This document shows, one piece after another, positions 4,854-29,564 of a stretch of DNA of 37,423 nucleotides; the stretch's first letter is position 1, and each line of letters opens with the position of its first letter. This DNA is from Craspedostauros australis. Its lineage: Eukaryota. The DNA lies in NCBI GenBank assembly GCA_030167865.1, contig JALAGF010000901.1:1-37423 (forward strand), given 5' to 3'. Made by a program: the position numbers and the translations under genes. Below the pieces are notes generated by a model. It was not told the DNA's origin, made no database searches, and saw only the letters and a list, made by a program, of their open reading frames with translations.

Positions 4854-5061
4854 TGTTGGCAAGTTCCGTGATTGGAAGCCTATGATCGTGGAAGATGGTA
4901 TTGGTTGATAGTCGTTCGTTTGCTATTTCATTACTTGGCTACTCCGATCCTCTCGGTGTACACCAGTTCTCTTGCCCGATGCTCTCGGTGCTTCAATCTG
5001 TTTTGTAGATTCAGTCTCCGACTATGAGTCGGTGAGCGAGATGCTCTCTTGCTACTCTTCG

Positions 5062-5101
<40 letters not shown>

Positions 5102-5354
5102 ATCGTGTGCTCATGCTACACGATACTCCGTGTTCGATGCATACTCTGCATTCGACACTCCGTTCATTCACTGCTGGTTCCTACTCCATGAGTACTTACC
5201 ATTTGAACTTCACCTCCTGTATCCATGATCTCAATGTCCTCGGTCATCGGATCTTCGCCTCCTGCTCTGACATGGAGACAGATGTCGACGTGGTGACACG
5301 ATGACATCCTGTCGACGTCAGGAGGCATCCTTCTGTTCTCCAGATGTCACGTTC

Positions 5355-6039
5355 AGTTGAGATTCAATGAGGGACAGACTATTACCGAACACGGTATCAA
5401 CCCGAAGGGAGAAATTCTTGTTTTGGCGCGAAATCTTCCGACTTGATNGACCACCAAATCTTTTCTCCTCCTTNCTCTCCTCCATTCACGAATCCATCAT
5501 GACTCAAACCTGACCGACCTGACTCACACCCCACCTGGGAACTATATGCTCTTCAGATCCTCCTTGCTACAACATACCTCGATTCCTCCATGCTGATGAT
5601 CACCACACTACCACCGTGGTCTCAACATGCGTATCCAACTTGCTTCAACTCAAGCAATGGAATCCGAGGGTCAGCTTCAGCCACAGCCACTGCTTCATGA
5701 CCATCACCACTAGGTGTCATGACCTACACTGCAGTGTAACTACATGTGCGGAGAGCAAAGTACTGTATTGAATGTCTACTCTGTCGCACTGAATCAAGTA
5801 CATCAGTGCAGGGTCTCGCCAAGTTGTGTGGCATCGTTTCTTCACCCTACTAACACCAATAAGCTAACTCATAANNNNNNNNNNNNNNNNNNNNNNNNNN
5901 NNNNNNNNNNNNNNNNNNNNNNNNNNNNNNTCTTCAATCAGTACACCTCTCTTGAACTGCATCACACGGCTATCCCGAAGCCGGCAGATTCACGAGGCAT
6001 TCTCCACCGATTCGCGACGTCTACGCCCGAATCCTAACT
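5355..6039. mobile_element. Unclassified insertion with AGTT...AACT termini and a 5-bp TSD; true length unknown because of an assembly gap
   Basis: TSD CGTTC at 5350-5354 and 6040-6044. Ends AGTTGAGATTC / GAATCCTAACT form an imperfect 11-bp inverted repeat. LTR homology stops and resumes exactly at the TSD. Confidence 0.75.
5875..5930. other. Assembly gap (run of N)
   Basis: Consecutive n characters. Confidence 0.99.
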
Positions 6040-6374
6040 CGTTCCATTGGTGATGCAGTGGTCTGTCAGATGATATCGTCATCTGAGGTTTAGTTGGGAA
6101 GTACCTCGAGATTCTCTTGGTACCATGCGTTTCCATTGATGGATGGACGGACGAGATTTCTAATTCTCTCAGAAATCGTTGGTTGCAAATTTCCTCCAGA
6201 AATTCTGCTCATTTTCGTGTGTTCCATTTCCACTGTAATTCTGACGAATCACAGCATACTATTGACACGANTGNAGTTATACCGTCCAAGTGCGTATGAG
6301 AGAATAACAGGTGAACGATGCACATATACACGTACATCTCGACATATACTCACATGTACATCTCGACAGATGCA

Positions 6375-7330
6375 TCCTATCATGCCAGCGAATGACGACA
6401 AGGCTTGCACAGCCATCATCAAGAATCCATCCAAGGAGATCAGCGCGGTGAACTTGCATCGAATGCTCAGCCACGCGCCACTCGAGACCATGAAGCGGAC
6501 AGCCGCTCAATACGGATGGAAGATCATTGGCGAGATGCCCGTATGTCGCGACTGCGCGGTCGCAAATGCGAGAGTGAAGAACATCTTGAAGGCAACAATC
6601 CCGAGAGCAAGTCAGCGCGGCGAACGTTTCTTCATCGACATTAGTTACACTAAACACACAAGCTTCAGAAATGAACGCTACTGGACCCTGATCGTGGATG
6701 ACTGCACGGATCACTGCTGGAGTTTCTTTCTCAAGAACAAGAGTGATCAACCAGGATACATCAAACGATTCGTCCAAACGATCAAATCACAGACTGGTGA
6801 CCAACAGATCATCTTCCAAGGAGACAACAGCGGAGAGAACAAATCCACGCAGGATATTCTCATCGATGCAGGACTGAACATGAAATTCGAATTCATGGCA
6901 TCGAACACGCCGCAACAGAACGGTAGAGTGGAACGCAAGTTCGCGTACCTCTACACCAAGATCCGCTCCATGCTCAACGGAGCACAACTCAACAAAGAGT
7001 ACAGGCATGGCTTGTGGGCAGCAGCTGCGAGCACTGCCACCGCCATCGCCAACATCACCGTCGCGAAGAACCAAAAGGAGTCACCACATCGCCAATTCTT
7101 CGGCAGCGATCCACCATACGCAGATGCACTCCGCACATTCGGAGAGGTGGGTGTTGTGAAGACTACCTACGGCGGGATCACCGCCAAACTCAAGAATAGA
7201 GGAGAAGAGATGGTGCACACCAACATGCATCAGGAGTATATAACATGTACAGATCATCAACCAAGTCACTGGTCTGTTCTCGCAACATCAAGTGGCTCAA
7301 CCAATCATACGGACAGTTCCGTGGCTGGGC
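6375..7330 (+). pseudogene. gag-pol part 2: integrase
   Basis: HHCC (LHRMLSH...CRDC) and DDE core (FFIDISY, IVDDCTD, GDNSGEN, TPQQNGRVERKF). Frameshift near 7215-7225; the C-terminal part HASGVYNMY...SRNIKWLNQSYG continues in another frame. Confidence 0.9.
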
Positions 7331-8130
7331 GCCAGCACCGAACACATCCAACGAAGCAGGAACAATGGACACAGACAGCTTCACAACCATTGGACAGAAG
7401 GGAGCGATACCAAGGACGGCAATGCGTCAAATATCAGAGGCAAAGAGAGTATCTTTTGCCAACACAACAAATATCACATCTTATCAGATAGCGATGACGA
7501 GGATGATGAGAATGAAGGAATGGAAATCCAACCAATTGACGACGAAATGGATCGGAGCGAATCTAGCTCAAAGGACAACACTATCCAACCATCCGACGAT
7601 GAAGCTGACGATGACACAGGCGTCACTCCTCCGAATACACCAGCGAAGTCTACACATGAGACTCCATCGAGATCTCCACAGACCAAACCAAGCAAGCGTG
7701 ACATAGACAGAAAGGAGAGGATCCGACATCATGAAGCATGAGGCAGGAAGGGAGACGTTTATCCCAAGCCTACCACAGGGAAGAGAAGTCCCAGAGCACT
7801 GCATGCGCTCGCAGACTTCAACGAACGAGGTCGAAAGGAAGAAGGTTACAAGAGCGAGTCATCATCCAATGAAGAGAGTGATGAACTCAGTGACGAAGTA
7901 ACTGATGAATCCAACAACGAAACTACAGACAATGAGGAAATTGCAGACAAAGAAGAGATCGAGATTACCCATCATAGTACAACAGGACTATACGGAATGA
8001 ACGCAATCATTACCGAGACACCAGCGATCGACATCGGACTGTCGATTCAGGACGAGAACAAGGAACCAGAGAAGCACATCGAACCAACAACATTCGATGG
8101 AGCCTTCAATCACCCAGATCCCATCCATCG

Positions 8131-9872: not shown

Positions 9873-12822
9873 GGTCTAGCATTACGTGGGGTGATCCAGG
9901 GTCACAGAGCGATTGGATGATCTCGGAACTTCCAGAATGAATGAACATTGCAAGAGGCGTTGTGGTGGGTGATTGATGGTTGTCCATTTCCATATTGTGA
10001 GCGAGGGGGTTGACAGCTTGGCGATGTCTAGATGGTATGACTCCTCTATTTGTGCTCCCCATTGCTGGCATCTTCCTGTCCATGGATTCTGCTTTGTCTC
10101 GCCACCCGTTGTTGTACACAACTCCGCATGGTCCACACTAGCGTGTATCCTGGAATCGTGCGACGTCTGTGAACATGCAAATAAAAATCAATTTGACGTT
10201 CAATTGAAGCACTCCTGCAACCCCACAACATCAAGGACAGACTTGGCTGATCTCATTCCACTTGGTACCACAAACGCAGAGTACATTCTTTTTCTGCGAG
10301 TACTCTTGAGCCAATACGTCGATTGTATCAAACCGGTACTCGTTGAAATGGAATCTGTGTGTGTGGTTGTAGCTGCCAACGATTTGGTTGTCGAATGAAG
10401 CGGTACCTCATGAAGTATCCAACAGTCATCTCGAACAAAGTCCACAACGTTTGCGAGAGGGGGAGAGAACACTCAACGCCAGAGGACAGCATGATGCCTC
10501 GAACTAAACACATGCAGATCGACCAGCGCATCCGCTGTGCCGTGTTTTGTTGACCAACGTGGGTTGATCTGGCACCGCTCCGTCTGTCTCTATGTCTTTG
10601 CTGTTCCTCGGTCTGGAGTGTCAAAAGTTCGTTGCGAGTTGTCGATTGTCAGAATTGCTGCGCCTCGAAGGGGCTGGGATGTTGCAACAATCACTGCTCC
10701 TCTTCATTCCTCTCGTCACGTCACATGTGAACGCCAGGCCCAAGAGTTTTCCTTCACATTCGCGTTCCTCTGAGCCAAGGCTTTTTAATCTTCGTCGGGG
10801 GAGCGCTTTGCAGAAGACAGTGAAGCACATGGCGATGAGGTGGAGGTTGGTCTCGGTCTCGGTCTCGATTGTGCTTCTCTTCGCGCACGCGCTCGTGATG
10901 CGTTGCCATTGGCGATGCGGTTAACAATGTCGCTACTATTGGTGTTGTTGCTGATGATGCTGGTACGAATCTCGCTGCTCCCACGCTGCTCCTTGGGAAA
11001 GCAAAGCATTTCTAGACCATAGACAGAACATGTGTTTGGGGTGATTGCGAGGACTGTTCGACTGCAGCATAAATGAGTATGCCACACGGAGCACATTGAA
11101 GTGCGGCATCACTCTTGGCAACTCCATCGAACGCTCTGGATCTCTCGTGTTGCATTCCTGCATGTCTCTGTCTTCTGCCAATACGTCGGATCGTGGCGGT
11201 TTCACCATATTACACGCGATGATGACACATAGTATCGCATTGGCGGGCGTGTTTGATCTTTCAAGTTTTATCCGCTGAATGACCGAAGCGGGAGAATGGA
11301 GCCGGTCCAAGAATAACTTTGTGGGCATTGGAAGGCCACAAAAGCGCCAACACGTCTGGGTGCAAACATATCATGACAGTAACACAAAACAACCAGAATT
11401 AACACAGCCGTGACTACGACTTTGATACTTTCGGAGACTGTGCATACTTGTGTGTCTCGTCACAGCACCAATTCAATACAAACGTCATTCCCAGAGTTGC
11501 TTCGTGACGCAAACCAATAAATAGAGCGGATCAAGAAATGCCATTGGTGAAGCACAACGACTTTCAGTTCTGTCGAAGCTGGTCGTGATCACAACCTCAA
11601 CCAGATAACATTTAGAAATGAGTGAAGGTGGTCACAGAGAAAATAGGAACATGGTGGTGAACGTGCACGGACCAGGGCGTGCTTGTGTGATCCGTGTGTG
11701 TCGCAAGCGGTAGCTAGTGGGGCCTTCTCAACTCACTCCAGCAGTGGCGCACCACATCGCAACTTCTACCAACGGCGTCATCAACGCGAGTGCGAATGAA
11801 ACGGCGTCAATCTCGTTCAATTCGTATGAATACCACGCACACGAAGCAACAGCACTGGAACGAATCTCCTTGTTTTGGAATCAGATGTTGCTGGTGTGGA
11901 TCACCTTGGCGGACTTTGTCGAAGAGAGCTTCAGGATCGGATGAGCAACAGGCGAATGAACGAGCAATGCTTCTCCTCATACTTTTCTCCACAAGGTGTG
12001 TGTGGATGCACGAGCAGAGCAGCAGAGGGAGGAGTGTTCATCTGTCGTTGGCACAACACAAAACCACAGTGGTTATCGCACTATTCCTCGTGGTGTCTCT
12101 CGCTGCATGTGCATGTGGAATTGCGTCTGCGAAAATCACTTCCTCGCCTTCGCAACATCCACACTTCTCTCATAAAAACAATCGACGAACAGATTGTCCT
12201 CCGAAGCGCAGCATCACAACACAGCAATCGACAAGCATTGCCACGTGATCGCAAGCCTCTCTCCGGCCAAAGCCAGATACAAACCAAAGGTACGTTACGC
12301 TCATCGATCAATCGCAGCCGCAGGTTTGCAAGATGAATGAATATGTGCAGGGCGAGGAGTCCATGACGGAAGGATTCGTTCGCAGCACTCGTCCTGCCCG
12401 ACACAGCGTGCTGCCTCAAGCAGATGCACACATCGGGAGCAATAGCGTCACGGGCAGCATCTGGGGAGGACGCTCCCATCGGATCAGCTGCAATCGTCAT
12501 GGGAGGTGCGATGCGTAATGATGCCACACGTCCCCCACGCTAGTCGTTCCGATCGCATGCTTGCTTTGGCATGTTGGTGACGTGCTGTGTCATCACCTCC
12601 AACTCTGCTCTACTCTGCCCGCCCAATACACTGCTGCCACGTTCTGTTACTCTGCCCAACTCAACTCAACCCCACATCTCTCGTGTTTCACCGGTACGAG
12701 TGCTTCTGTTCCCGCACTCCACCATGCGCTGCGCTGCTCTATCCGTCTCCAACACGAAAATGAATCGCAGCACACAATCCAAGCAAGCGACAAGCACAGC
12801 AACCAGCAAATACCGAACAACC

Positions 12823-15627
12823 ATGATCCACACCAAGGCAGCCTTTGTCGCCTTTCTTCTTCTCGCCAACACGGCAAAAACCCACGCAGTGCTCCGCGGC
12901 AACAGGACTCCCGTGGATCCAACTGAGGAACTCCACATGATGATGACGAAGACCCGTATCCTCAAGGACGCCGACGGTGACACGAAGGCCATCAAGGGCA
13001 GAAAGAGAAACAACGAAGTACCTACCGACAACCCGGCTGATCCAGAAACAACCGCGCCAACCGCATTGCCTACTGGGTCGCCGACAGGCTTGATTTCGGA
13101 GATGCCCTCGTTGACACCTGTCGTTCAGCCAACCGCGTCGCCAACATCAAAGCCAACATCCAAACCATCAGCTGCCCCCGCCGTCCTTGATTCCACCATC
13201 GAGGTTGTTTGCCAGCCAGATGGCAAGACCGCCCTCACAACAGAAGAGACTAGCACCAAGACCATCATCTGTAACTCTGCCAAGCCATCCTGCCGCGAGG
13301 CAGTGACCGCCGTCAAGGACTCCGTGCAACTACAGAATTTCTTCGGGTGTGCAGGGGACCTCAGTGAAGGAGCCGCTCGGAAGCTCTTCAACAAATACGC
13401 ATCCAGTGACGTGCTCGCTGGCCAATTGGTCCTGATCGCTGCCACCAACGCGATCCTCGTCACCGAACGTCCGAATACCATGAAGGCAGCATGTGCGGCC
13501 ATCGCTGCGATGCAATCGCCTCCCGTCGAAACCTCATGCTGCCAAGGATCATCGGGATGCACCTCAGTCACCGGTTCCGCCTCCAACTCTCCTCCTTTCA
13601 TGACCGTCGCCATCACGGCATGCACTGGTGACAGCGCCTGCAAGGACATGGGCCCCAATCCCCTCATCCTCGATTCCTCCTGCACTGGCGCGAGTGCATG
13701 CGAGTTGGTCAACGAGAACGAGATCAACCCCTTCGTTACGGGAGTCACCTTCGTTGGTGAGATGGCATGCACCACCCCTCAATCTTGTGAGGGTGTGGGA
13801 CGCCGCTCCCATGGTGATGTGACCATCCAGACGGGCGCATGCGTTGGATCAGAGGCATGTAATGCAGCTGGACGCCGCGTCATGCAGAAGACCACCCGCA
13901 TCCAGAGCCACATCGACATCGGGTCGAATGCGTGCGTCGGCAGCAATGCCTGCAAGGATGCCCATTCCACTGTCAACTATGGTACTGCTGGCAAGCGTGC
14001 AGGCAGTCTGACCATTGGTGCTGGTGGCTGTGCCGCCGATGGGTCATGCGAGAAGATGGGCTTCAATGACAGGATGACAACCGACCTCGTCGTCCCTCCT
14101 GGTGGATGCGGCAGTGTCAAAGGCTGCAGGGGATGCATGACGAAGACGGAGTGCGGCTCCGACGAAGTCTACATCATCAGCGATGTCGATGGGGCCTGTC
14201 CAAAGGGAGGCAATGGCACCAACAACAATCCCACTGGTGACAAGGTGGAGGAGTACTGTACTGGCAAGGACACCTTGCCCACAGACTGTCCAACTTTTTC
14301 TCCCACTCCATTCCCCACACCTGCCACGTCACCTCCCACATCAGCCCCCACTGCTCCAACTTCAGCACCAACATCAGCCCCCACATCGACTCCTACATCG
14401 ACTCCGACGTCGGCCCCCACATCGGCTCCAACATCGGCTCCTACATCGGCTCCGACGTCAGCTCCCACATCGGCTCCCACATCGGCTCCAACTTCAGCAC
14501 CGACATCGGCTCCTACATCGGCTCCTACATCAGCTCCAACCTCACAGCCTTCGCAAGAGCCTACAAGAACAAGTAATCCAACTCTCCCTCCAGCATCCTT
14601 CACCGTAGGATGTCTCGAACAACCGGGTAACGGTGCATCCATGTTCAATCCCATCGATGGTGACATATTGTGCGATGGTGCTGCAGGCACATGCGCGGAC
14701 TTTGTTGCTGTGGTCGACGGCCTCGGTGACAAGGGCAAGATGATCAAGAGCATCTTTGGATGCAATGGTGAAGACCCTCCACAGCCCGTGACGTTGGAGG
14801 TGGCACAGGAACGCTTTGATAAGATCAGGAACGACGAAAGTGTGACCAAGGCATTGTTGGCGTTCGCGAACGAGGACAAGAAGCTCTTTACTGGCAGCAC
14901 ATCTGTGGTGATGACTGCGTGCAATGGCAAATGCTGCCGCGGTTTGGGTGCTTGCGCCGTTGGCTCTGGTGGTGTCCTGACGGTGAGCACAGGATCATGT
15001 GTTGGAGATTTTGCATGTTCAGGCACACATCCCAACGCAATCATACTTGACAGTTGCAAGTCAGCCAATGCCTGCAATGGGTTGGGCAATTTCTTCTATT
15101 TTCAGCCAGCTGCTGGTGCCAAAGTCGGTTTCAGGGTGATCGGACCAAGAGCTTGTGTTATGACAGGGAGCTGCTTTAATCTTGGACAAAACATCTTTGG
15201 CAATGTACGAGTGGAAGAAGGAGCATGCGATGCATCCCAGGCATGCAATCTACTTGCGAAACGCACCAACCAAGGGTCTACAACCACAACACCGGTCGTG
15301 GCAAATGTCTTCATCGGAAAGAATGCGTGCAAAGGGTTTAATGCTTGCACCGGCGTGCATAGTGTCGGCATCTCCTCCAAACTCGAAGGAAGTGTGATCA
15401 TCGAAGAGCGTGCCTGCTCGGGCTCCAGCGCGTGCAGGACTGTTGGCAGCAGTGGCAGCGCAACCAATGATATCATCATCAGAGCAGGAGTCTGCACAAC
15501 AGCCGTCACCTGCGACAGTTGCGCCCAAGGATCATTGTGTACGTCACCCATAGAAACGTACGTCGTCGACGACCCAGCCACGGATTGTGCTGAGCCATTC
15601 CAATCTGCTTGCGAAGTACTCTATTAA
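12823..15627 (+). CDS. Secreted Cys-rich / mucin-like cell-surface glycoprotein (934 aa)
   Basis: The ATG at 12823 gives signal peptide MIHTKAAFVAFLLLANTAKTHA, then VLRG and an RILKD motif. A Pro/Thr/Ser linker follows, then two homologous Cys-rich modules (FGC...CCxG..., repeated GACxGxxAC) separated by (PTSA)n. Single exon, no TM segment. Confidence 0.85.
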   Translation: MIHTKAAFVAFLLLANTAKTHAVLRGNRTPVDPTEELHMMMTKTRILKDADGDTKAIKGRKRNNEVPTDNPADPETTAPTALPTGSPTGLISEMPSLTPVVQPTASPTSKPTSKPSAAPAVLDSTIEVVCQPDGKTALTTEETSTKTIICNSAKPSCREAVTAVKDSVQLQNFFGCAGDLSEGAARKLFNKYASSDVLAGQLVLIAATNAILVTERPNTMKAACAAIAAMQSPPVETSCCQGSSGCTSVTGSASNSPPFMTVAITACTGDSACKDMGPNPLILDSSCTGASACELVNENEINPFVTGVTFVGEMACTTPQSCEGVGRRSHGDVTIQTGACVGSEACNAAGRRVMQKTTRIQSHIDIGSNACVGSNACKDAHSTVNYGTAGKRAGSLTIGAGGCAADGSCEKMGFNDRMTTDLVVPPGGCGSVKGCRGCMTKTECGSDEVYIISDVDGACPKGGNGTNNNPTGDKVEEYCTGKDTLPTDCPTFSPTPFPTPATSPPTSAPTAPTSAPTSAPTSTPTSTPTSAPTSAPTSAPTSAPTSAPTSAPTSAPTSAPTSAPTSAPTSAPTSQPSQEPTRTSNPTLPPASFTVGCLEQPGNGASMFNPIDGDILCDGAAGTCADFVAVVDGLGDKGKMIKSIFGCNGEDPPQPVTLEVAQERFDKIRNDESVTKALLAFANEDKKLFTGSTSVVMTACNGKCCRGLGACAVGSGGVLTVSTGSCVGDFACSGTHPNAIILDSCKSANACNGLGNFFYFQPAAGAKVGFRVIGPRACVMTGSCFNLGQNIFGNVRVEEGACDASQACNLLAKRTNQGSTTTTPVVANVFIGKNACKGFNACTGVHSVGISSKLEGSVIIEERACSGSSACRTVGSSGSATNDIIIRAGVCTTAVTCDSCAQGSLCTSPIETYVVDDPATDCAEPFQSACEVLY
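14335..14547 (+). repeat. Coding 12-bp tandem repeat, (Pro-Thr-Ser-Ala)n
   Basis: About 17-18 units of ccN acN tcR gcN with synonymous variation. Confidence 0.95.
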
Positions 15628-16919
15628 TCACATACACCGCCACACGTACTAGTGGCTAGTGGCTAGTTTCCATTTTTTTGCACTTTTTGGTAACCATTGG
15701 CGTATCGCCGACGCCACAGACTGCCAGGCGATGAGTTGATGGCTGTTGCCTGACGTCTTTGCATCATTAGGAAGAGGAGAGTGAGAGCTCTCTGTTGATG
15801 TGGTCATTGTAGGCAAACGGTCTCTGCTTGTTGTTCACCTCGATGCCTATTTTGACCCTATATTGGCCCTTTATGAGGAAATTCATGGACAACGTACAGA
15901 CAAGAATCCGGAATTTTTTGTTGGTAACCATTGGTAACTGCATAGAGTCTACGGCATTCTGGTACAGAAACTTGTTGCGTTTTGGTCCAATAGCAACCGA
16001 CTGTCTTCCAAAGACCCGCATCCAATTCTGTTTCGTCTATTGCTCAAGTGAATGGTATGGATGAATTCGTTGCTTCATTCTGCTTCAGGTGGTGTGCTGG
16101 TCAGTACTCCAGAATGTGTGTGTTGCTTTGAGTGTTTGAAGTCAGTCACTAGTGCTCGTGACAGCCATGATCATCAATCTGTGAACACACAAAAGTTCGC
16201 ACCCAAAATCATCGTGCATTTTTACGTCTTGTTGGGATCTGGGCTGATGGTAATGACTGTGGATGATCAGTGTGTGTGCTAAGTATGTTGTGTAGGAATG
16301 GGAATTATGAGGCATGTCTTGCTATTTTTGTTGTGTTTCGCTTTGTTCTGTTCTGCTGGCGTGTTTTGTTGTTTGCCTTCTTGTTTCTCTTTGTTGTTGC
16401 ATCTTGCTTGCTGCTGTTCTGCGGTCATCAAATCTTTTGTGTTTCCGACTCATGCGATCGTGGTGTCAATGGCTTCGGCTCGTGCGATTGCCGCTCGAAT
16501 ACGTGTTGTAGATTTGGATTGTGCTGCTCGCCTGAGTCTCTCTACTTTATGCAAGGTTGTGCCTCACCCCTGACATTGGATCATCGTGCTGTTGCTTGCA
16601 ATCGACGCAGTTTCCTCTCCTGCACCTGCCCATGTGGTCTTGGTCTTCGAACCTCACTTCCTCCAAAGATATATCAATTTCAAGTTATTTTCGTCGCTTT
16701 GTCGGGTACTATCATTGTGAGGAAACATCGCTTCCTGATCACGCCCCACAACTGTCTTCATTGGCACTGGTTGCTACACTCTTGCAAAGACTAGCCATTG
16801 ATTTCATGCTCATTCCATGGGTGAAGTCGTTGATGCAGTCGCTGTTCGTGCTCCATCCAAGCATGTTCGAAACGTTCTGTGCAGGAAGCCTCATGTTCTC
16901 TACTGGTCTTGAGCACCGC

Positions 16920-18450: not shown

Positions 18451-20770
18451 ATGGATTCATTGACATCACACAGCGATGGTGGCGGTGATGGTCCCAGCCA
18501 TGAATCGAACCAACCGCAGCGTCAATACAAAGGAAAGCTGAGTGGTGACGACCAGCCGAATGTCACGTATTTCGAATTGGGCATCGACGGTGACGATGAC
18601 ACTCACGCTGAGACCGACGCCGACGCTGTCGCGACTTCCAGCGGTGCGGAATCAACACCGAGGACGACGGCGATGACACTGGATGGCGACATCGACGAGG
18701 AACAGCAACACAATGTACTCCTCGCTGGCGGTCGCTCGCAACGCGGGAATGGGATTGCCGCCAATTCATCAGCAGACGGCTACGATGGCCAGGATGACTT
18801 TGATGGTGCCGCTGGCATCGACGATGGCTTTCGCGCCGGTAATCAAAAGGGGACGCAGTCGACGTTATGGGATGTCATCGCCATCAATCCGCTTCGCACG
18901 GTCTTCGTCAAGCTTTACGGCGACGCGCTTTCCACGCAGGAAATGGTGCAGACATTGTGTCTAGCGGTCACCTTGCTCATGATCGTCGGTGCTTATTGGA
19001 TGTTGCGCTCCGTCAAGGATACTGTCATCGTCACGTTATGCGGGTACGAGTACATCCCCAAGGCGCAGATGCTGTCGCCTCTCATGGTATTTCTCATCGT
19101 CACCATCTACAACTGCCTCCTCGACATGCCCGGCCTGAAGAAGCACCAGCTCTTCTACATCTTCGGTATCGCGTACTCCGTCCTCTTTGCCGTCATCGCA
19201 GCGCTGCTCATGGACCCCGTCATCGGTCTGCCAAACGAGAAATCGGACCCGACCAGAATACTCGGATGGATCCACTACTTCGCCATCGACAGCTTCGGAT
19301 CCATCATGACGGCCTTGTTCTGGAGCTTCACCAACTCCACAGTCAGCGCAGAACGAGCAAAAGCGAGCTACGGCATCATGGTGGCAACAGCGCAGATCGG
19401 TTCCATCATCGGCGCCACGGTTGTGCAGCAATTCGCACAGGTTCTGGGCGTCGCGCAGTGTTACATGTTGGGAGCAATCACGATCCTCCTAACGCCGCTC
19501 TCCATGTTCCTCTACATTCGAACGTACGGCAGCCATGAACAGGAAACATCCGACGCACAAACTGTCGCAACAACTGCAAACGATGATGACGATGAATCGC
19601 CTGCACAGAACAAGCGCACCATCCGGAAACAACAATCCAATGCTTCCAAATCGCAACAGCCCAAAAGTTGCGAAAGCTGCGGTTTGTTCATCAAGCACTC
19701 CTACGTTCGAGGCATCTTGTTCATCGGTTCCTTCTTCATCATTCAGCTTGCAAGTAAGTGTCACGCGACGTGTGTCCATGGTGCATTGCATTTTGGTGAA
19801 CTGCTCGTTGCCGGTCGTATCACCTTTTCATGACTCTCGTTGACGTTAATGCAACGGCACTCTGTTTGCTCGTACCGTTACGCACACCATGATAACGGTG
19901 ATTGATGATGATGACGATGATGATGACGATACTCACACTTTGCATAAGCATACTTCGACTCTACTCTACTCATTTTTGCATTCTCCCGTTGGCTTCATCG
20001 ACTGTCCTTCCACAGTCGTCGATTACACTATGAAAGTGCTGGCCGTCAAGCACTTTTCATCTCAGTTCCCCTGCAAAGAGGGTGACACCTGCTGGGACCC
20101 ACACGGTGATCACAAAGCTTCAAAACGCGCCATGGAGGCCATGACCTCCTTCATGGGAACATTCGGTCAGGTCACTAACACTCTCACATTCGTCATGAGC
20201 CTGTTGGGCACCAGCGCCATCATCCGATCGCTGGGATTGCGATTGACTCTCCTTCTCTTCCCATCCATGTGCCTCATCGTGGTCGTCATCGTGCTGTGCT
20301 TCCCCAGCCTCTACCTCCTCTTCGGTGCCATGATCATCCTCAAGGCATCCTCGTATGCCCTCAACAATCCCACGAAGGAAATTCTCTACCAACCCACCAG
20401 TTCGGCTGTCCGCTACAAGGCCAAGAGCTGGATCGATATGTTCGGCGCGCGCGGCAGCAAGGCCATCGGCGGCTTGGTCACAGACGTGCTCAAAGGTTCG
20501 ACGGAAGGATTGGTGCTGTACGGGAGCTTGGTCGGAATGTCGGTATCCACATTCCTAATCTACAACGCATACTCGATGGGATTGATGTACGAAAAATTCG
20601 AAGCATCAGGATTTGTCGTCGGCGAGGAAGAAGAGGAGGATGGATCAGCGGTGGTGGTGGACGACGAGGATCATGAATCGCAATCGATACAGATGGCGCC
20701 GCTGATGACATCCTCCGCAAACACCGCGAATCATGTCACCGTCGAAGATGATGTCCAAGTAGCACAATGA
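18451..20770 (+). CDS. Non-mitochondrial nucleotide transporter (NTT / TLC ATP-ADP translocase family), 2 exons, 685 aa
   Basis: Exons 18451-19753 and 20016-20770. Intron GTAAGT...CCACAG (19754-20015) joins [14 protein letters not shown] in frame. Motifs [26 protein letters not shown] and [16 protein letters not shown]; many TM helices; acidic N-terminal extension. Start codon is the best guess. Confidence 0.88.
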
Positions 20771-21034: not shown

Positions 21035-22966
21035 TCAAGAGCCGGTATGCCCGGCCGCATCCGGACTGGTCGAAGCCTCGCCAACGACTTCATCTTGAAA
21101 GCCACTATCTGGCAATTCGATCGCGCTGTACGCAAACTCGTCCACAAGCGCGGCATTTTGTGGATGCAGCTGCACCGGAGCGTCGCGACCATGTCGAACC
21201 GTTTTGAAAATCCAAACGACCAAGAAGGGAAGCAAAATGACGGCTCCCACGATCGATCCACGGCAGGTGCCGCCGCAGCTGTGAGAGACGGCACTTGGAG
21301 ATGCGGAATCGTCTCCTTGCGTTGGATTGGCAGGTTTGTCGACGGAGGAATCGAAGACCGATGTGAACCCGTTTTGCTCGAGTATCTTGGAAAAGTCACA
21401 GTCGCTCTCGGCAAACCCGAGGCGGCCGCCATTGATATCAAAGAAGACGTCGTGTCCCATCATGACGTTGGCCCCCATCACGCTTCCACCAGATTCTGTC
21501 GGAGAGAACCGGGGAATGTATTGCCGTGACTGTTTCTTGTATTCCATGTAATGCGATGGAGGGAAGGCGAGAATGACATCGGTGGGATATTGCGGGTCCA
21601 GGTCGCCGGCCAGTCCGAGCGTCTTCTTGGGATCGGCACCGAAGTTGTCACCTTCGAGCTGGAAGAGGATGGTTGGCAGCGCTTCTAACTCCTCTTGGGT
21701 CAGCCTGACGCCGTGACGAGGGTAGTCCTGACCCGTCAACTCTCTGAATTTCAATTCGAATTCGGCGGCAATAAAGTGATTCCAATACGTGTCAGTGGTT
21801 CCAGAATCAAGGATGACGCCGTGCCTGTTAATGTCGTACTCGCTCAGATTCAGTCGCAGCACCCCTTCTGTTTGATCCTCATGTTTGGATCGCGCCGATT
21901 CGCCTGCTTTCCCGTCGCGCAGGTGTATGCGTCGCACCTTGACGCTGAATGATCCACGACGGCCTGCATTCCTGTTGGGAGTGTATACCATGTCATCGTG
22001 ATGCAGCCGTGGGTCGACACCGCCCAACGTCATGGCACCGGCCTCCGTGCCTTCTCGGTTGGCCGTTGGCTGTCTGGAGAAGCACAACGCGAACTGTTCC
22101 TTTTGCCCCATGTGCCCAGAAATGAACATCTGGTGCCAATAGGATGCAACGCTGTTGCCCATCCCCAAGATTCCGTCCGCAAGCTGCGTGCGGAAGAGAC
22201 CGGTGATCTCGAATTGGCAACCGAACACCATGTCGAACGCAAAGTTGCTCGCATGGCTGGGATCCAAATCGTCGCTGCCATGATCATCTACGAGAGGAAT
22301 GACGTGAGATCCACCGATGTAGCAATGGTCCTTAACTTCGTAAGCTTTCCAACCGCTGCCTTCCGCGTAGAACTGCGATAGCTCGCAGTGCTGGTAAGCT
22401 CCACAACTGGCTCGTTCGTTGGTGCATCCATCCACTGTGCAATCCTGAATGTGGAAGGATGTCGACTGATCGGGATCAAACAGCTTGTCGATGTGGTAAT
22501 CTGGCGCACCGCAATTTTCGCATCCCTTGCAGGGGAATCCAGTCGCGCCACTATTTGTGCTGACGATGACAGTCTGTCGTTGCGGCGGCGTGCCGCACCA
22601 TACATCGACGTAATGCGTGCCATATCCTTGGTACAACGCTCCCACCTGCTTGGCACCCCCGAGCCGGCGACGTGGGTGGTCTGCGTCGCCTAGATTCGCG
22701 CTGTCAAGGTTGTCATCCAAAGCTTGTGATGCGTCGATTGCATCCAACCCGCGCGCTCGTGCTCGCTGGCGCCGGCGGTGTTCAACATGATGGGGAACCA
22801 GCGGGTGCGAGACGATTCCTGTTGGCAGCCCAGCCATTTTCTCTTGGATTTCACCGTTGCTGTCTATGGCATCGTTGAGTGGCGGCAGCCCAGTCGCCAA
22901 GGCCGCGGCTGCGGCAGCTGAGGCGATGAACGCGTACAACGCAGCTGCACGGAGGAATGACTTCAT
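21035..22966 (-). CDS. Plasmepsin V/ASP5-like aspartic protease homologue AP1, first catalytic Asp absent (643 aa)
   Basis: Signal peptide, pro-region ending RRRL, GTPPQRQTVIV-STN-S in place of DTG, FPCxxCxxCG, YAEGS, FGC...LFRTQLADGILGM, ILDSGTT, C-terminal TM helix and acidic tail. Confidence 0.9.
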   Translation of the reverse strand: MKSFLRAAALYAFIASAAAAAALATGLPPLNDAIDSNGEIQEKMAGLPTGIVSHPLVPHHVEHRRRQRARARGLDAIDASQALDDNLDSANLGDADHPRRRLGGAKQVGALYQGYGTHYVDVWCGTPPQRQTVIVSTNSGATGFPCKGCENCGAPDYHIDKLFDPDQSTSFHIQDCTVDGCTNERASCGAYQHCELSQFYAEGSGWKAYEVKDHCYIGGSHVIPLVDDHGSDDLDPSHASNFAFDMVFGCQFEITGLFRTQLADGILGMGNSVASYWHQMFISGHMGQKEQFALCFSRQPTANREGTEAGAMTLGGVDPRLHHDDMVYTPNRNAGRRGSFSVKVRRIHLRDGKAGESARSKHEDQTEGVLRLNLSEYDINRHGVILDSGTTDTYWNHFIAAEFELKFRELTGQDYPRHGVRLTQEELEALPTILFQLEGDNFGADPKKTLGLAGDLDPQYPTDVILAFPPSHYMEYKKQSRQYIPRFSPTESGGSVMGANVMMGHDVFFDINGGRLGFAESDCDFSKILEQNGFTSVFDSSVDKPANPTQGDDSASPSAVSHSCGGTCRGSIVGAVILLPFLVVWIFKTVRHGRDAPVQLHPQNAALVDEFAYSAIELPDSGFQDEVVGEASTSPDAAGHTGS

Positions 22967-23599
22967 GGTGTTTGTTTATGTGGGGTAGATCGTACTCTAG
23001 TGTTTCCTTCAGTTCTTGCTTCTGTCTCTGTTGCTGATGCCGCCGCTACTTCCTCTGTTGCCGCTACTGCCACCACTGCCGAGGCGATTCTTTCCGACGC
23101 TCTTTCTCTCACGCGTCCTCTCTGTCTCTACACCAGCGCCTCCTTGTTCCGCCCAAGAGGCTCTTTTCTGCAACCAACCGAAGCGCCACGACAACAAAAG
23201 TTGAGAACTCGATTTCCAGACGAGCACAAGATCTCATCTCATGTGATGCTGTTGAATCGTGTTTCGCAAGCGATACGGACAGAACTATGCGAACAAGCTG
23301 CCGCAACAATCCGAACGCCGGACAAAGAGAACAGTTGTGGACGTCATACCCCAAGAAGAATTCTGTGGAGCGTATTCTAATCAATCGCGGGATAGGATTT
23401 TCTTTGGTAAAGCAGTGCATTCCTATTGATTATTCTGCCATTGCCTCTTCCATCTGTTGACTGACCAAGATTTCTTGTTCGCAATTGGTCGTGTGGGGCT
23501 GCTTGGTCCGTCTGATGGCCGAAATGTGAGACAACTTGGCAAGTTAAATGCATGATGTGTAAAGTAGAGTGCGCAGATTGCGTCTCTTCAGGTGCCGGA

Positions 23600-25140
23600 G
23601 TCAGACGAGATCGCTCAATGGAGGGACGACTTGGGACGTCTGGAATGTCCGCAGAGTCCAGGGAACCTGGAGAACCTATCTACTCCGATGAACTGGAGGA
23701 CGCAGAGGTGGAGGTTGAGGAAGAGGCAGAAGACACAGAGCCAGATCCAGAGGATGCGCTGGAAGACGAGTCTGGGGAGTCCGGAGAGTCTGGTGAATCT
23801 GCAGAAGAGACAGATCCGGAGCCAGCAGAAGTGCTGGAGCTCAAGCGGCGGCCATCAGAGCTGGATTTGCTGGTGGAAGTGTCCGGGGAATCCGGAGAGT
23901 CGGGAGAGTCTGGGGAATCTACAGAGGAGACGGATCCAGAAGATCCACTGGAGCTCAAGCGACGGCCATCACCGCTGGACTTGCTGGTGGAAGTGTCCGG
24001 GGAATCCGGAGAGTCTGGTGAGTCTGGGGAAGAGATAGAGACCGAAGAGACAGATCCAGAGCCAGCAGAAGTACTGGAGCTCAAGAGGCGGCCGCGGATG
24101 GTGCCTTGTTTGGCGCCATGTTTGGTGCCACCTGCAGCCACGAGGTCGAAGTTGCTGGCCATGGTGGCGGCGATGAAAAGGGTTGCGACGGAGGTGATCT
24201 TCATGGTTGGATGTTGTTGGTAGTGTGTCGGTCGACGGTGTGGGTTGGTAGTGTTGGTTTGTTTGTTTTTGGATGCTTTCGGTTTGATGATGATTGAGAT
24301 TTGTGAGATGAAGGAGTTCATGTCCGAACCCATTCCGCGTGCTCACGCACTCACATACATACATATAGTAAGTACTCTACTCAGCTCATTCCAACACGGT
24401 ACATCAGACTGCATCAGACTGCATCATACTTACTGCACCAGGACAAATGATAAACAGAGGTGAGTGAAGTGAGGTACTCTGTCAAATCTCCTGTCTTGAC
24501 TCAGTCTGATGGTTGAATCCAGTTTGCACGATCGACTGACACCCTGGCGAGGATGGGAGTTAGAGGGCTGCCGTGGAGGCTGTGTGATACGAGTACATGG
24601 CTGGAATGGACTGATGCGTACGAGTATGGCACGAGTGTGTGAGAGTACGAGTGTGTGACACTGGCGTAGAAATAGAGTAGAGTGACCCTCTCTGTGGTAC
24701 ATACTGCTGTGGCGCATGTTCTGATGATAATCAGTCACGTGTCTTGTGATGTGCGTATCTTTGCAATCGGACGCTTCTGCGAACGCGGAAGTGTTGTTCC
24801 ACACAGACAGCTCGTATTGCATGAGCATCATGCTCCTCCACGGTCTTGCCCACGACGATGTGCCATCGTGTGGAACGTGAGATCCGGAACTACGACATAC
24901 TCGAACGTGGATGTGAGGAGAAAGGAAGTGGGATTGAGATATCTTGGAGAAACGGAGTGGTCGAGCACGTTTGCTAACATCCTAGAGTATACGCTATTGC
25001 TCTGCAATGCCATGGTATCCTATGTTATGCTCTCTCCCTTTTCATACCGACTGAGGTAGGCACTCTACTCTGGGATTTATTCACTTGTTTAATCTCATTC
25101 CCGGGCGTGGCCATCGGATCATGCCTCCCTCTTTGCGACT
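23600..25140 (-). repeat. Tandem duplication unit 1 (SIL1 plus about 0.9 kb upstream)
   Basis: Colinear blocks shared with 25980-27000, e.g. 24504-24536 vs 26476-26508, 24732-24773 vs 26702-26741 and 25077-25116 vs 26936-26974. May extend to the (ACAG)-rich tracts near 25500 and 27440. Confidence 0.75.
23680..24204 (-). CDS. Secreted Ser/Asp/Pro-rich RxL-repeat precursor SIL1 (silacidin-like, 174 aa)
   Basis: The ATG at 24204 gives signal peptide MKITSVATLFIAATMASNFDLVAA. Three Ser-rich (SPD)n units follow RLL (24082-24090), RRL (23956-23964) and RRL (23842-23850). Paralogue at 25991-26224. Confidence 0.82.
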   Translation of the reverse strand: MKITSVATLFIAATMASNFDLVAAGGTKHGAKQGTIRGRLLSSSTSAGSGSVSSVSISSPDSPDSPDSPDTSTSKSSGDGRRLSSSGSSGSVSSVDSPDSPDSPDSPDTSTSKSSSDGRRLSSSTSAGSGSVSSADSPDSPDSPDSSSSASSGSGSVSSASSSTSTSASSSSSE

Positions 25141-25979
25141 CCACGTCCCTTCTCGAAGCACGAGTATGGTGCATACGCATGGCATCATACGTTTGCAATG
25201 TCCACCTGCCTCTTCGACGTGTTGTTGTTGTTGTCTGAACCGTGCGAGTAGAGTGCAGCGATCATCTGCGCCTACTCCGCACGCTGTCGTCATCAATCAC
25301 TCCATCGCCATACTCGTGAAGCACTCCAGTCTGTCATGCAGTTGGACAAGTGCGCAAGCATCATGTGTCAGTCAACAAGACCACACCGGCCAAGAACTGC
25401 CAAAGACGACTGAACATGAACAACAGTGGGATAACGCAAAAACTGTTGTTTCAGGCACCCAGACAGACAGATACAGACACACATACAGACACATACAGAC
25501 AGACAACAAATACATATGTACAAATATGCATGCACAAACGTACAGCCATGAACAGCCATGAACAGCCACGTCTGTTCGCCATGTACGGGCAACAGTGGAT
25601 GAATGATCCGGTGCCATCGACGCCGTGGACATAGTCATGTCCATGCCCGTGGCGATCCTTGCCCGTCGATGCGAGACAGGTGAACTCGTGTCCTGTCCAA
25701 CACAACGCGATGCCAAATGCAAAAGCAAGGATAGAGAAAGAGAGAGGTGTGTGTGGAGTATGTGTTGTTAAAGTGATTCATTCATACTAGCTACATCAGG
25801 GATGTGTTGTCGATAGTCGTTCCACCAATGTCTGGAGTATAGCATTCGTAGATCAGCCACAGTCTCGTATTCGAACCTTTGGAGCTGCTTGCCCCATGCG
25901 ATGATGGAAACACGAAGCCAGTCGATCATGGTGGGATGTAGCGCTCTATGTCCCTTGCAGCTCGTGCGATGTTGGAATC

Positions 25980-27000
25980 AGGCAATCCCTCTATGGAGGG
26001 ACAACTGGGGTGACAGGAGCATCAGGGGAGTCTGGAGAGTCTGGCGAATCTGGAGAGTCCGCGGAAGCAGAGGAGACTGAGCCGGAGGCAGAGCCAGAGG
26101 ATGCGCTCGAGCTCAAGCGACGGCCGCGGATGGTGCCTTGTTTGGTGCCACCGGCAGCTACGAGGTCGAAGTTGCTGGCCATGGTGGCGGCGATGAAAAG
26201 GGTTGCGACGGAGGTGATCTTCATGGTTGGATGTTGTTGATAGTGTGGGTTGATAGTGTTGGCTTGCTTCTGGATGCTGTTGGTTTGATGATGATTGAGG
26301 TTTGTGAGATGAAGAAGTTGAAGGCCCAGCACACTTCATGAAAGCATCGTCCTACGAATACCCGACATCATGCCGCCATAGGGAAGGGTACGTTGCAGTA
26401 CAGAATACGAGTGAATAGTACCAATGAGAAAGAGAGGTGAGCGAAGTGATACATTCGATCGCTCACCATGCCTCGGTCTGATCGTTGAATCAATTTCGCA
26501 CGATCGACAGTCATCATTCAATGAGATATGTCTGGTGGGAATCATAGGATCGCTGCGGAATATGTACTAGCTATGGTGTCATCCAAGGGATGGAATCGGC
26601 TTCAGCGTATGTTACATACGGTATCGGAGTAGCAGTTTGATAGCTGTAGAATATCAGTAGGGTGGCGCTGGAGTGAAATGTCGCATGTGGTTCATGGTGA
26701 CCAGTCGCACGTCTTGCGATTTGTATCTTCGCAATCGGACGAATCAGCGTTCGCTAGAAGTGTACTTCCACATGTACGCGTATGGTATCTATTATGAGTA
26801 CGTATAGTTGTGGGATGAAGACATCTGGCCAAACACGTTTGCCATCATGGTGCTACTATTCTATCGTCTTCCATTCCATACCATGTCATTTCGTGTCATT
26901 CTATTCCGGTATGTTCCTGCCCGTTCCTATCATGGTTTATTCACTTGTCCACCTACTCCCCGAGCGTGGCCATCAGGTCGCGCCTCGCTCTCTCCGTGCG
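25980..27000 (-). repeat. Tandem duplication unit 2 (SIL2 plus upstream)
   Basis: Same colinear blocks as unit 1; boundaries approximate. Confidence 0.75.
25991..26224 (-). CDS. Secreted Ser/Asp/Pro-rich RRL precursor SIL2 (silacidin-like, 77 aa)
   Basis: Same signal peptide as SIL1, then GGTKQGTIRG-RRL-SSSASSGSASGSVSSASADSPDSPDSPDSPDAPVTPVVPP. RRL at 26114-26122. Confidence 0.8.
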   Translation of the reverse strand: MKITSVATLFIAATMASNFDLVAAGGTKQGTIRGRRLSSSASSGSASGSVSSASADSPDSPDSPDSPDAPVTPVVPP

Positions 27001-27680: not shown

Positions 27681-29564
27681 TTACTGTTTCTCACTTCGAT
27701 TGCTCGAAGTTTCATCTTCCTCCTCAAACTCGCCATCCGCCATTTCTATTGAATCGTTGTCAAAATCATCCGCCAGCGCGATGTTCTGCGCGTACAGTTC
27801 GGCGGGCGTGCTGCGACTGCGCGTCGACTTGGAGACGCAGACGACCAAGAATAGGATTGCGATGCAGCCACCGATGATGGAACCACGGCACGTGCTGTCG
27901 CACGATTCCAAAAGCTCCTGCAAGTCGCTGGATGCGCTGTCGTCGTCGCTGTCGTCATTCTCGGCCATGGTTTCGTTGATGGATGTATCAAAGACGGATT
28001 TGAATCCGTTGCGCTCAAGGATCTTGGAAAAGTCGCAGTCGCTCTCGGCAAATCCGATGCGGTTGGCGTCGACGTCGAAGAGGACGTCGTGTCCCATCAT
28101 GGCGTTGGCGCCCAGCACGCTGCCGCCGTTTTCCGTGACGTAGAAGCGCGGCGTGTAGGTTTTCGTCTCGGGGTCGTACTCCATGTAGTGCGATGGCGGA
28201 AAGGCGAGAAGGACATCGGTGGGATGCTCGGGGTCCAGGTCACCCACCAAACCGAGCGTCTTCTTGGGATTGGCCCCTTCGTTCTCACCGTAGATCTGGA
28301 AGAGGATGGTCGGCAGCGCTTCCAACTGCGCTTGGGTGAGCTTGCTGCCATGGTTGCTGTAGACCTTGTCTGTCATCTGCTTGTACTGCTTGCGGAATTC
28401 GCTGGCAATGTATCTGTTCCAGTACGTGTCGGTCGTGCCGGAATCGACGATGATGCCACTCTTGTTGATCCTATCCTCGGTGACATCTAGTCGCACCACC
28501 CCCTGCGTGACGTCATGATGCTTGGATCTCGCGGATTCTCCCGCCTTGCCATCGCGCAGATAGATGTTGCGCACGCGGATGCTGAAGAAGCCGCTGCGAC
28601 CTGAGTCCGTCTTGGTGGTGTAGACCATGTCGTCGTGATGCAAGCGCGCATCGACGCCGCCCAACGTCATGGAACCGGCCTCCGTGCCGTCGCGATCCGC
28701 CGTCGGTTGTCGCGAGAAACACAGCGTGAACTGGCGCTTGCTGCCCATGTGACCGGACTTGAACATCTGATGCCAGTACGTGCCCTTGTTGTTGGACATC
28801 CCCATGATGCCGTCCGCGAGCTGCGTTTTGAAGAGGCCCGTGATGGTGGTCTGGCAACCGAAGACCATGTCGAAGGCGAAGTGGCTCGCGTGGCTGGGAT
28901 CCAGATCGTCGCTGCCGTGATCGCCGACGAGGGGAACGACGTGCGAACCGCCGATGTAGCACTTATCCGCGCCTTCGTAGGCGCTCCATCGGCTGCCTTC
29001 CGCGTAGGCCATGGAGAGGTTGCACTGGTCGTTGGTCCCGCAATGCGATCGCGCGCTGGTGCAGCCGTTGGCCTTGCAATTGGGCACCTCGAAGGTGTCC
29101 GATTTTTTGGTATCGAAGAGGCCGTCGATGTGATACTCTGGCACGCCGCAGTCGTTGCATCCGTCGCACGGGAAGGCCGTGACGCTGCTGCCAGTGTCGA
29201 CGATGACGGTCTGTCGCTGCGGCGGCGTGCCGCACCACAGATCGATGTAGTGCGTGCCGTATCCCTGGTACAGCGCGCCCACCTGTTTGGCGCCGAGTCG
29301 TCGGTTCGAGCCATGGATCATGCAGTCAGCGTCATCGTCAGGCTCGCGTGCGTCCAATCCACGCGCTCGGCGTCGTCGACGGCGCTCCATGTGGTGCGGC
29401 ACCAGCGGGAACGAGATCATCTGGTGGCTGGGGTCATAATTCTGATCCGCGCTGTCATCTTGCAGCGCCTCCTTGAGTTGGGCAGTGACGGCCGCCAATG
29501 ATGGAGACACGGCAGCCAATACCAAGTGTGCGTACAACACTGCTGCGCAATGGAATGATATCAT
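27681..29564 (-). CDS. Plasmepsin V/ASP5-like aspartic protease AP2, catalytically intact (627 aa)
   Basis: The ATG at 29564 gives a signal peptide (MISFHCAAVLYAHLVLAAVSPSLA). Pro-region ends RRL. IVDTGSS (DTG at 29190-29198), FPCDGCNDCG, YAEGS, LFKTQLADGIMGM, IVDSGTT (DSG at 28437-28445), C-terminal TM and acidic tail. Confidence 0.92.
   Translation of the reverse strand: MISFHCAAVLYAHLVLAAVSPSLAAVTAQLKEALQDDSADQNYDPSHQMISFPLVPHHMERRRRRRARGLDAREPDDDADCMIHGSNRRLGAKQVGALYQGYGTHYIDLWCGTPPQRQTVIVDTGSSVTAFPCDGCNDCGVPEYHIDGLFDTKKSDTFEVPNCKANGCTSARSHCGTNDQCNLSMAYAEGSRWSAYEGADKCYIGGSHVVPLVGDHGSDDLDPSHASHFAFDMVFGCQTTITGLFKTQLADGIMGMSNNKGTYWHQMFKSGHMGSKRQFTLCFSRQPTADRDGTEAGSMTLGGVDARLHHDDMVYTTKTDSGRSGFFSIRVRNIYLRDGKAGESARSKHHDVTQGVVRLDVTEDRINKSGIIVDSGTTDTYWNRYIASEFRKQYKQMTDKVYSNHGSKLTQAQLEALPTILFQIYGENEGANPKKTLGLVGDLDPEHPTDVLLAFPPSHYMEYDPETKTYTPRFYVTENGGSVLGANAMMGHDVLFDVDANRIGFAESDCDFSKILERNGFKSVFDTSINETMAENDDSDDDSASSDLQELLESCDSTCRGSIIGGCIAILFLVVCVSKSTRSRSTPAELYAQNIALADDFDNDSIEMADGEFEEEDETSSNRSEKQ

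Follow-up and report, generated by a model that had tools for sequence, protein, structure and literature searches.

A small family of RxL-punctuated, serine-rich precursors, possibly silacidin-like in function, beside plasmepsin V-like proteases in a raphid pennate diatom

Two neighboring precursor genes and a third paralogue

Two co-oriented genes, A and B, together span exactly positions 23680-26224 on the minus strand of the window, the whole 37,423-nucleotide stretch of DNA analysed here. Sequence searches found three genes of this family in the genome, a count that is a lower bound; the third is the paralogue C. The features are as follows.

23680..24204, minus strand: gene A, a 174-aa precursor with a leader and three Ser-rich peptides
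24082..24204, minus: leader of A (aa 1-41), a hydrophobic signal-like N-terminus and a short basic propeptide, common to B and C
24082-24090, minus: first RxL site of A (aa 39), at the end of the leader, RLL rather than RRL
23965..24081, minus: peptide A1, 39 aa, (SPD)4, one Lys, 46% Ser
23956..23964, minus: RRL site 2 of A (aa 81)
23851..23955, minus: peptide A2, 35 aa, (SPD)4, one Lys, 49% Ser
23842..23850, minus: RRL site 3 of A (aa 119)
23683..23841, minus: peptide A3, 53 aa, (SPD)3, no Lys, 58% Ser
23635..23679, minus: SPD block that has decayed behind the stop of A (3' UTR), keeping register with B's coding tail
24205..24790, minus: 5' flank of A, conserved between A and B and in its proximal part also in C, with an A/C-rich leader and promoter-side blocks
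25991..26224, minus: gene B, a 77-aa precursor with a leader, RRL and one 40-aa peptide
26114-26122, minus: RRL site of B (aa 35)
26225..26760, minus: 5' flank of B, 89% identical to gene C over 506 bases (leader included)
G000:C4645:2574-3383: gene C, 269 aa with seven RRL

The single 40-aa peptide of B carries (SPD)4 and a Pro/Val tail, with 38% Ser and no Lys. The initial annotation had proposed SPD peptides that are about half serine with at most one Lys, and this describes A and B well: their peptides span 35-53 aa, with 38-58% Ser, (SPD)3-4 and 0-1 Lys. The RRL separators that it reported are present twice in A and once in B, but the first site of A reads RLL. RxL sites number three in A, one in B and seven in C, and they are evenly spaced and nearly all RRL. 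Two or more RRL arose in 0 of 20,000 residue shuffles of A, the RRL count of B was matched in 0.37% of shuffles, and the count in C has a shuffle p < 1/20,000, the same as for A. Leaders followed by RxL sites, with RRL counts above those of shuffles, thus bear out the silacidin-like precursor layout seen in the initial annotation. Arg is almost restricted to RxL sites in all three precursors (five of the six in A), and the whole of A contains one Glu. All 11 units of A, B and C open with R-x-L-S-S-S, and none of the 11 contains the silaffin motif KxxK, as the initial annotation had also noted; the peptides are free of Lys clusters, Trp and Tyr.

Gene C departs from its paralogues in composition. 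Its peptides are of two alternating types of 31-35 aa, followed by a 20-aa end; they are near-neutral (net 0 or -1), contain SPDSP at most and never (SPD)3, and have two Lys in three of seven cases. The proposal of an acidic (SPD)n family consequently fails for C. Because of this we define the family by leader, RRL and serine rather than as ‘acidic SPD’: these are the constant features of A, B and C, and SPD and acidity are variable. Across the three genes, the peptides are 20-53 aa long with Asp+Glu at 5-17% (9-17% in A and B). Those of A and B are weakly acidic when unmodified, with a net charge of -4 to -5. Charge per residue over A, B and C is 0 to -0.14 unmodified and a computed -0.6 to -0.9 if 60% of the serines were phosphorylated; each A or B peptide has 5-6 S-x-D/E or S-P sites, which are only suggestive of phosphorylation. 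Pro, Thr, Ser and Gly make up 65-80% of each peptide, with Thr low at 0-3 residues. The N-terminus is hydrophobic in all three precursors by a crude hydropathy score, and the signal peptide was judged from hydrophobicity alone.

The 5' flanks of A and B have about 550 bases in common, as blocks. Gene C resembles B in its upstream region and A in its downstream region, and it is surrounded by transposon pieces. Tails and unit numbers change fast among the three genes. Pieces of a Copia-type LTR retrotransposon lie at 2506-7500 of the window and at L006:1-1650, and related repeats flank gene C.

Pattern searches of the genome returned 19 (SPD) matches against 9 in the control, seven of them in A and B, six in one unrelated secreted gene (C3586) and six in simple repeats. 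A double-RRL pattern matched 35 times, compared with 72 times in the control; seven are A and C, and the remainder look like chance. The unrelated gene (L020:883-1647; G000:C3586, ~16230-16790) encodes a secreted protein in which five Lys within 14 residues precede a long (S/T)PD tract, is probably spliced to a downstream exon, and is a silaffin-like candidate. The five-Lys pattern corresponds to the ‘pentalysine cluster’ described as silica-targeting (PMC5501833).

Searches beyond this genome found no relative, in line with the earlier remark that the peptides show no clear sequence identity to silacidins, at a sensitivity limited throughout by the low complexity of the queries. Pfam has no family for A or B, and no homologue turned up among 5.8 billion proteins in a search restricted to lengths of 95-305 aa. 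A profile search of 1.84 billion representatives gave five matches, each an unrelated repeat protein on inspection; the ESM Atlas showed nothing for A or C, and recognition was low; and a leader scan of metagenome contigs yielded 596 pattern matches, of which 0 were confirmed. A, B and C are a small, lineage-restricted family of RxL-punctuated, Ser-rich precursors.

The pennate host suspected earlier is likewise upheld. In a tree of 37 rows taken from the top matches plus one centric outgroup, the Cbf5 encoded in the window groups with a record labelled Stauroneis constricta (99/97), beside Bacillariaceae and Fistulifera, and the named matches of the flanking protease are pennates, bar one ciliate-labelled record. 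Matches to the silicon transporter family PF03842 number 92 in the genome; about nine are near full length, many are fragments and some contain stops. Model diatoms have a handful of silicon transporters, and the 92 matches are possibly inflated by the fragmented assembly. From the Cbf5 placement, the protease matches and the silicon-transporter matches, we conclude that the DNA belongs to a raphid pennate diatom that forms silica.

Coding constraint and transcription

When the SPD units are compared, all 41 of 41 base differences fall at third codon positions (0/0/41), and the leaders of A and B differ by five synonymous changes and one replacing change. Third-position bias is insufficient by itself, because a Glu-rich frame on the plus strand has the same wobble positions. 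This long plus-strand ORF was rejected as a shadow, with no ATG ahead of the repeats in B and C. The decayed SPD block behind the stop of A serves as a natural control: over 13 codons it differs from the tail of B by 2/5/9 changes by codon position, as against 0/0/9 for a coding block. Gene A stops with TAG and gene C, at the corresponding position, with TAA. A and B are therefore real coding genes, constrained at the protein level.

Contigs of one sequencing run from one study, X1, whose RNA nature is the tool’s guess and whose contigs are strandless, cover gene A at 23545-23755 (0 differences) and 23726-24005 (1 difference). The run also contains a variant that agrees with gene C in its TAA stop and in two deletions, one of 24 bases and one of 1 base. 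That X1 contains spliced RNA follows from a GT..AG joint at 19753-20016, which by arithmetic fuses two transporter ORFs in frame. We consider it probable that A and C are transcribed. No X1 contig covers B, which is uninformative since parts of clearly expressed-type genes are equally bare. The transporter is a TLC-family nucleotide transporter at 18451-20770 of the window (plus strand) with a 262-base GT..AG intron at 19754-20015. This intron is both spliced and retained in X1, where another contig lies inside it, and one X1 contig spans the 3' end of the transporter and the convergent protease gene.

Flanking aspartic proteases

A and B sit between two co-oriented aspartic protease paralogues.

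21035..22966, minus strand: plasmepsin V-like aspartic protease, 643 aa, with STN for DTG, RRL in the propeptide and a C-terminal hydrophobic stretch
27681..29564, minus strand: plasmepsin V/ASP5-like protease, 627 aa, with DTG and DSG, flap Glu, F-x-x-Q-x4-I, RRL in the propeptide and a C-terminal hydrophobic stretch

The 21035-22966 copy is, from its altered catalytic motif, a probable inactive pseudo-protease; its frame is intact and it has contigs in X1. Plasmepsin V is the best match with a solved structure (phmmer 2.5e-18 vs 9e-11 for BACE2). With Foldseek on a model of pLDDT 83, plasmepsin V ranks 1-2 at 1.4e-24 vs 2.1e-23 for BACE (~15-fold), with BACE TM-scores slightly higher. Aligned to plasmepsin V, the diatom protease shows the Glu/Gln pattern for P3 Arg and the I/Y/F/I pattern of the P1 pocket, and its F-x-x-Q-x4-I spacing equals F546/Q549/I554 of ASP5. 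Among homologues, Y.EG is found in 117/119 and F..Q.A.G[IV] in 118/119. Toxoplasma ASP5 cuts RRL after Leu and tolerates Ser at P1', clamping the P3 Arg by Glu and Gln and holding Leu in an I/Y/F/I pocket (PMC4764566); binding of the P3 Arg in an acidic S3 pocket is also described elsewhere (PMC13637054, PMC4643876, PMC12706786). The flanking proteases share with plasmepsin V and ASP5 the P3-Arg Glu/Gln, the P1 pocket and the C-terminal anchor (PMC4764566, PMC3116508), but they differ in a sequence identity of 21%, in BACE fold scores that come close and in a left copy without one catalytic Asp.

The genome encodes six plasmepsin V-like protease genes. In 100 of 106 diatom-type members of the family (P0004-P0122), RxL occurs 10-50 residues ahead of the mature domain, within the propeptide (shuffled mean 57, maximum 77). 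This suggests self-processing at the same motif, and it also points to RxL as a general maturation mark of diatom secreted proproteins. The protease responsible for taking RXL domains off the wall proteins of diatoms has been called unknown (PMC5525289). Co-regulated secretory proteases have been proposed, the plasmepsin V-like family being unnamed in the available text (PMC5501833), and a Phaeodactylum enzyme has been placed near plasmepsin V in a source that, in its available part, discusses only oomycete RxLR (PMC3116508). Among the papers listed from literature outside subscription journals, none linked a plasmepsin V/ASP5-like enzyme to diatom RXL cleavage. Linkage aside, the plasmepsin V/ASP5-like family is by its predicted pocket a candidate for the diatom RXL protease, at close to an even bet. 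A conserved linkage of protease and precursor was rejected: it was seen at none of 79 metagenome loci, 24 of which are at least 5 kb long, and in 0 of 4 neighborhoods of other protease paralogues (two cut by contig ends), and gene C has no adjoining protease.

Wall and adhesive proteins and the possible role of the peptides

In silacidins, about 60% of the serines are phosphorylated; the peptides occur in biosilica and precipitate silica with polyamines. Precursors of silacidins, silaffins and cingulins carry RXL at repeat ends, and A, B and C match the layout of signal, RxL and repeats found in silacidin, silaffin-1 and cingulin precursors (PMC4557024). With the silacidins of Thalassiosira pseudonana they share a repetitive RXL-bordered precursor and short, Ser-rich, Lys-poor peptides of several types per gene (PMC4557024, PMC11733937, PMC5649158). 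Silacidins are about 25 aa long and Asp/Glu-rich (PMC11733937, PMC4557024), in contrast to the lengths and Asp+Glu contents given above, they need phosphorylation for activity (PMC4557024), and their SEDS.SE motif (PMC12533330) is absent from A, B and C, which have SPD triplets instead. No silacidin similarity emerged from the protein, profile and metagenome searches, for which low-complexity queries are insensitive. Judged by described features and motif, the family is plausibly set apart from silacidins, not a member but at best something that may work like them.

Sil1p, the silaffin-1 precursor of the pennate Cylindrotheca fusiformis, likewise releases RXL-bounded, Ser-rich repeats behind a signal, but its units are basic with polyamine-bearing Lys clusters (PMC4557024); a silaffin identity was rejected on the lack of KxxK and Lys clusters in the 11 units. 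Protein 1401909 of Entomoneis vertebralis, also a pennate, has repeats of Ser and acidic residues that were compared to silacidin although the sequences are not similar, and differs in its SEV.S.SE motif, PT and K...K, with no RXL polyprotein layout in the description available (PMC12533330). Our literature search for ‘silacidin-like’ diatom peptides found no paper; for the pennate Entomoneis, a Ser protein of putative function that resembles silacidin had already been suggested (PMC12533330). The PTS-rich adhesive trail proteins of Craspedostauros australis resemble the present family as secreted proteins of a raphid pennate with about 70-78% Pro/Thr/Ser/Gly, but are built of O-glycosylated PTS-repeat domains (bioRxiv 2023.03.06.531300). 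A further gene of the window, at 12571-15627 on the plus strand, encodes a possible surface or adhesive protein, large and secreted, whose propeptide contains LRG and RIL and which also has PT repeats, Cys-rich modules and DUF7640.

We give about an even chance to the proposal that A, B and C encode cleaved, phosphorylated polyanions for the silica wall, silacidin-like by convergence. The signal peptide would be removed in the ER, and an RxL endopeptidase would cut after Leu, releasing disordered peptides of 20-53 aa that open with SSS. Many of their serines, in S-x-D and S-P contexts, may then be phosphorylated. Inside the silica deposition vesicle, the polyanions so formed could assemble with long-chain polyamines and so, by convergence, take the role that silacidins have in centric diatoms. 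We counted in its favor the layout, the R-x-L-S-S-S opening of every unit, the coding constraint, the X1 contigs, the silicifying host and the (SPD)n and Lys-cluster protein of C3586, and against it the weak charge, the commonness of RxL, the lack of KxxK, the adhesive-like composition and the failure to find relatives. Ten silica-associated proteins have been reported without any K..K, and silica proteins are described as motif-based and particular to a species (bioRxiv 2021.09.18.460806), so an RXL precursor restricted to one lineage is an expected kind of object.

The composition could also be that of O-glycosylated components of the adhesive trails, mucilage or organic coat of gliding raphid cells, with RxL as a general secretory maturation site, an explanation we consider distinctly less probable. 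Pro+Thr+Ser+Gly at 65-80% compares with 69% in the adhesive material of C. australis and 69-78% in two of its adhesive proteins (bioRxiv 2023.03.06.531300), and the raphid host, the neutrality of C and the generality of RxL fit as well. Yet the available description of those proteins as PTS-repeat domains does not mention RRL (bioRxiv 2023.03.06.531300), Thr is scarce in our peptides, and pieces of 20-50 aa would be poorly suited to a mucin-like polymer. It is unlikely that the products are instead partly cut, sulfated or glycosylated wall-associated regulators or scaffolds in the manner of silaffin-2 or cingulins, rather than precipitation partners. Anionic silaffin-2 and tpSil proteins are reported to regulate rather than precipitate (PMC4557024), RXL processing in general is said to ‘remain to be proven’ (PMC5647440), and the alternating peptide types of C suggest a patterned scaffold; the even spacing of nearly uniform RRL sites and the lack of Lys clusters, Trp and Tyr speak against it. 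Least probable of all, in our estimate, are recently expanded, species-specific secreted peptides with another role, such as cation binding or signalling, or with little role: the finding of three genes only and of no relatives, the position of C among transposon pieces and the fast-changing tails and unit numbers are in keeping with this, but the SPD units and leader carry a clear purifying signal.

Silacidin homologues (80-100% identical) are reported only from centrics, P. tricornutum and F. cylindrus having yielded none (PMC5649158). For the question of which polyanion partners polyamines in pennates, A, B and C offer between four and eleven defined peptides that could be synthesised and assayed, and the right pocket residues in the plasmepsin V/ASP5-like enzyme make the RXL-protease question testable by existing fluorogenic RRL peptide assays. 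The combined proposal, that a silacidin analogue of phospho-(Ser-Pro-Asp) peptides evolved independently in a raphid pennate and that the plasmepsin V/ASP5-like family is the RXL endopeptidase, with one active copy beside its substrate genes, is tentative and on the whole rather doubtful. If true, the maturation of diatom wall proteins would depend on the type of enzyme that also carries out PEXEL/TEXEL processing in apicomplexans.
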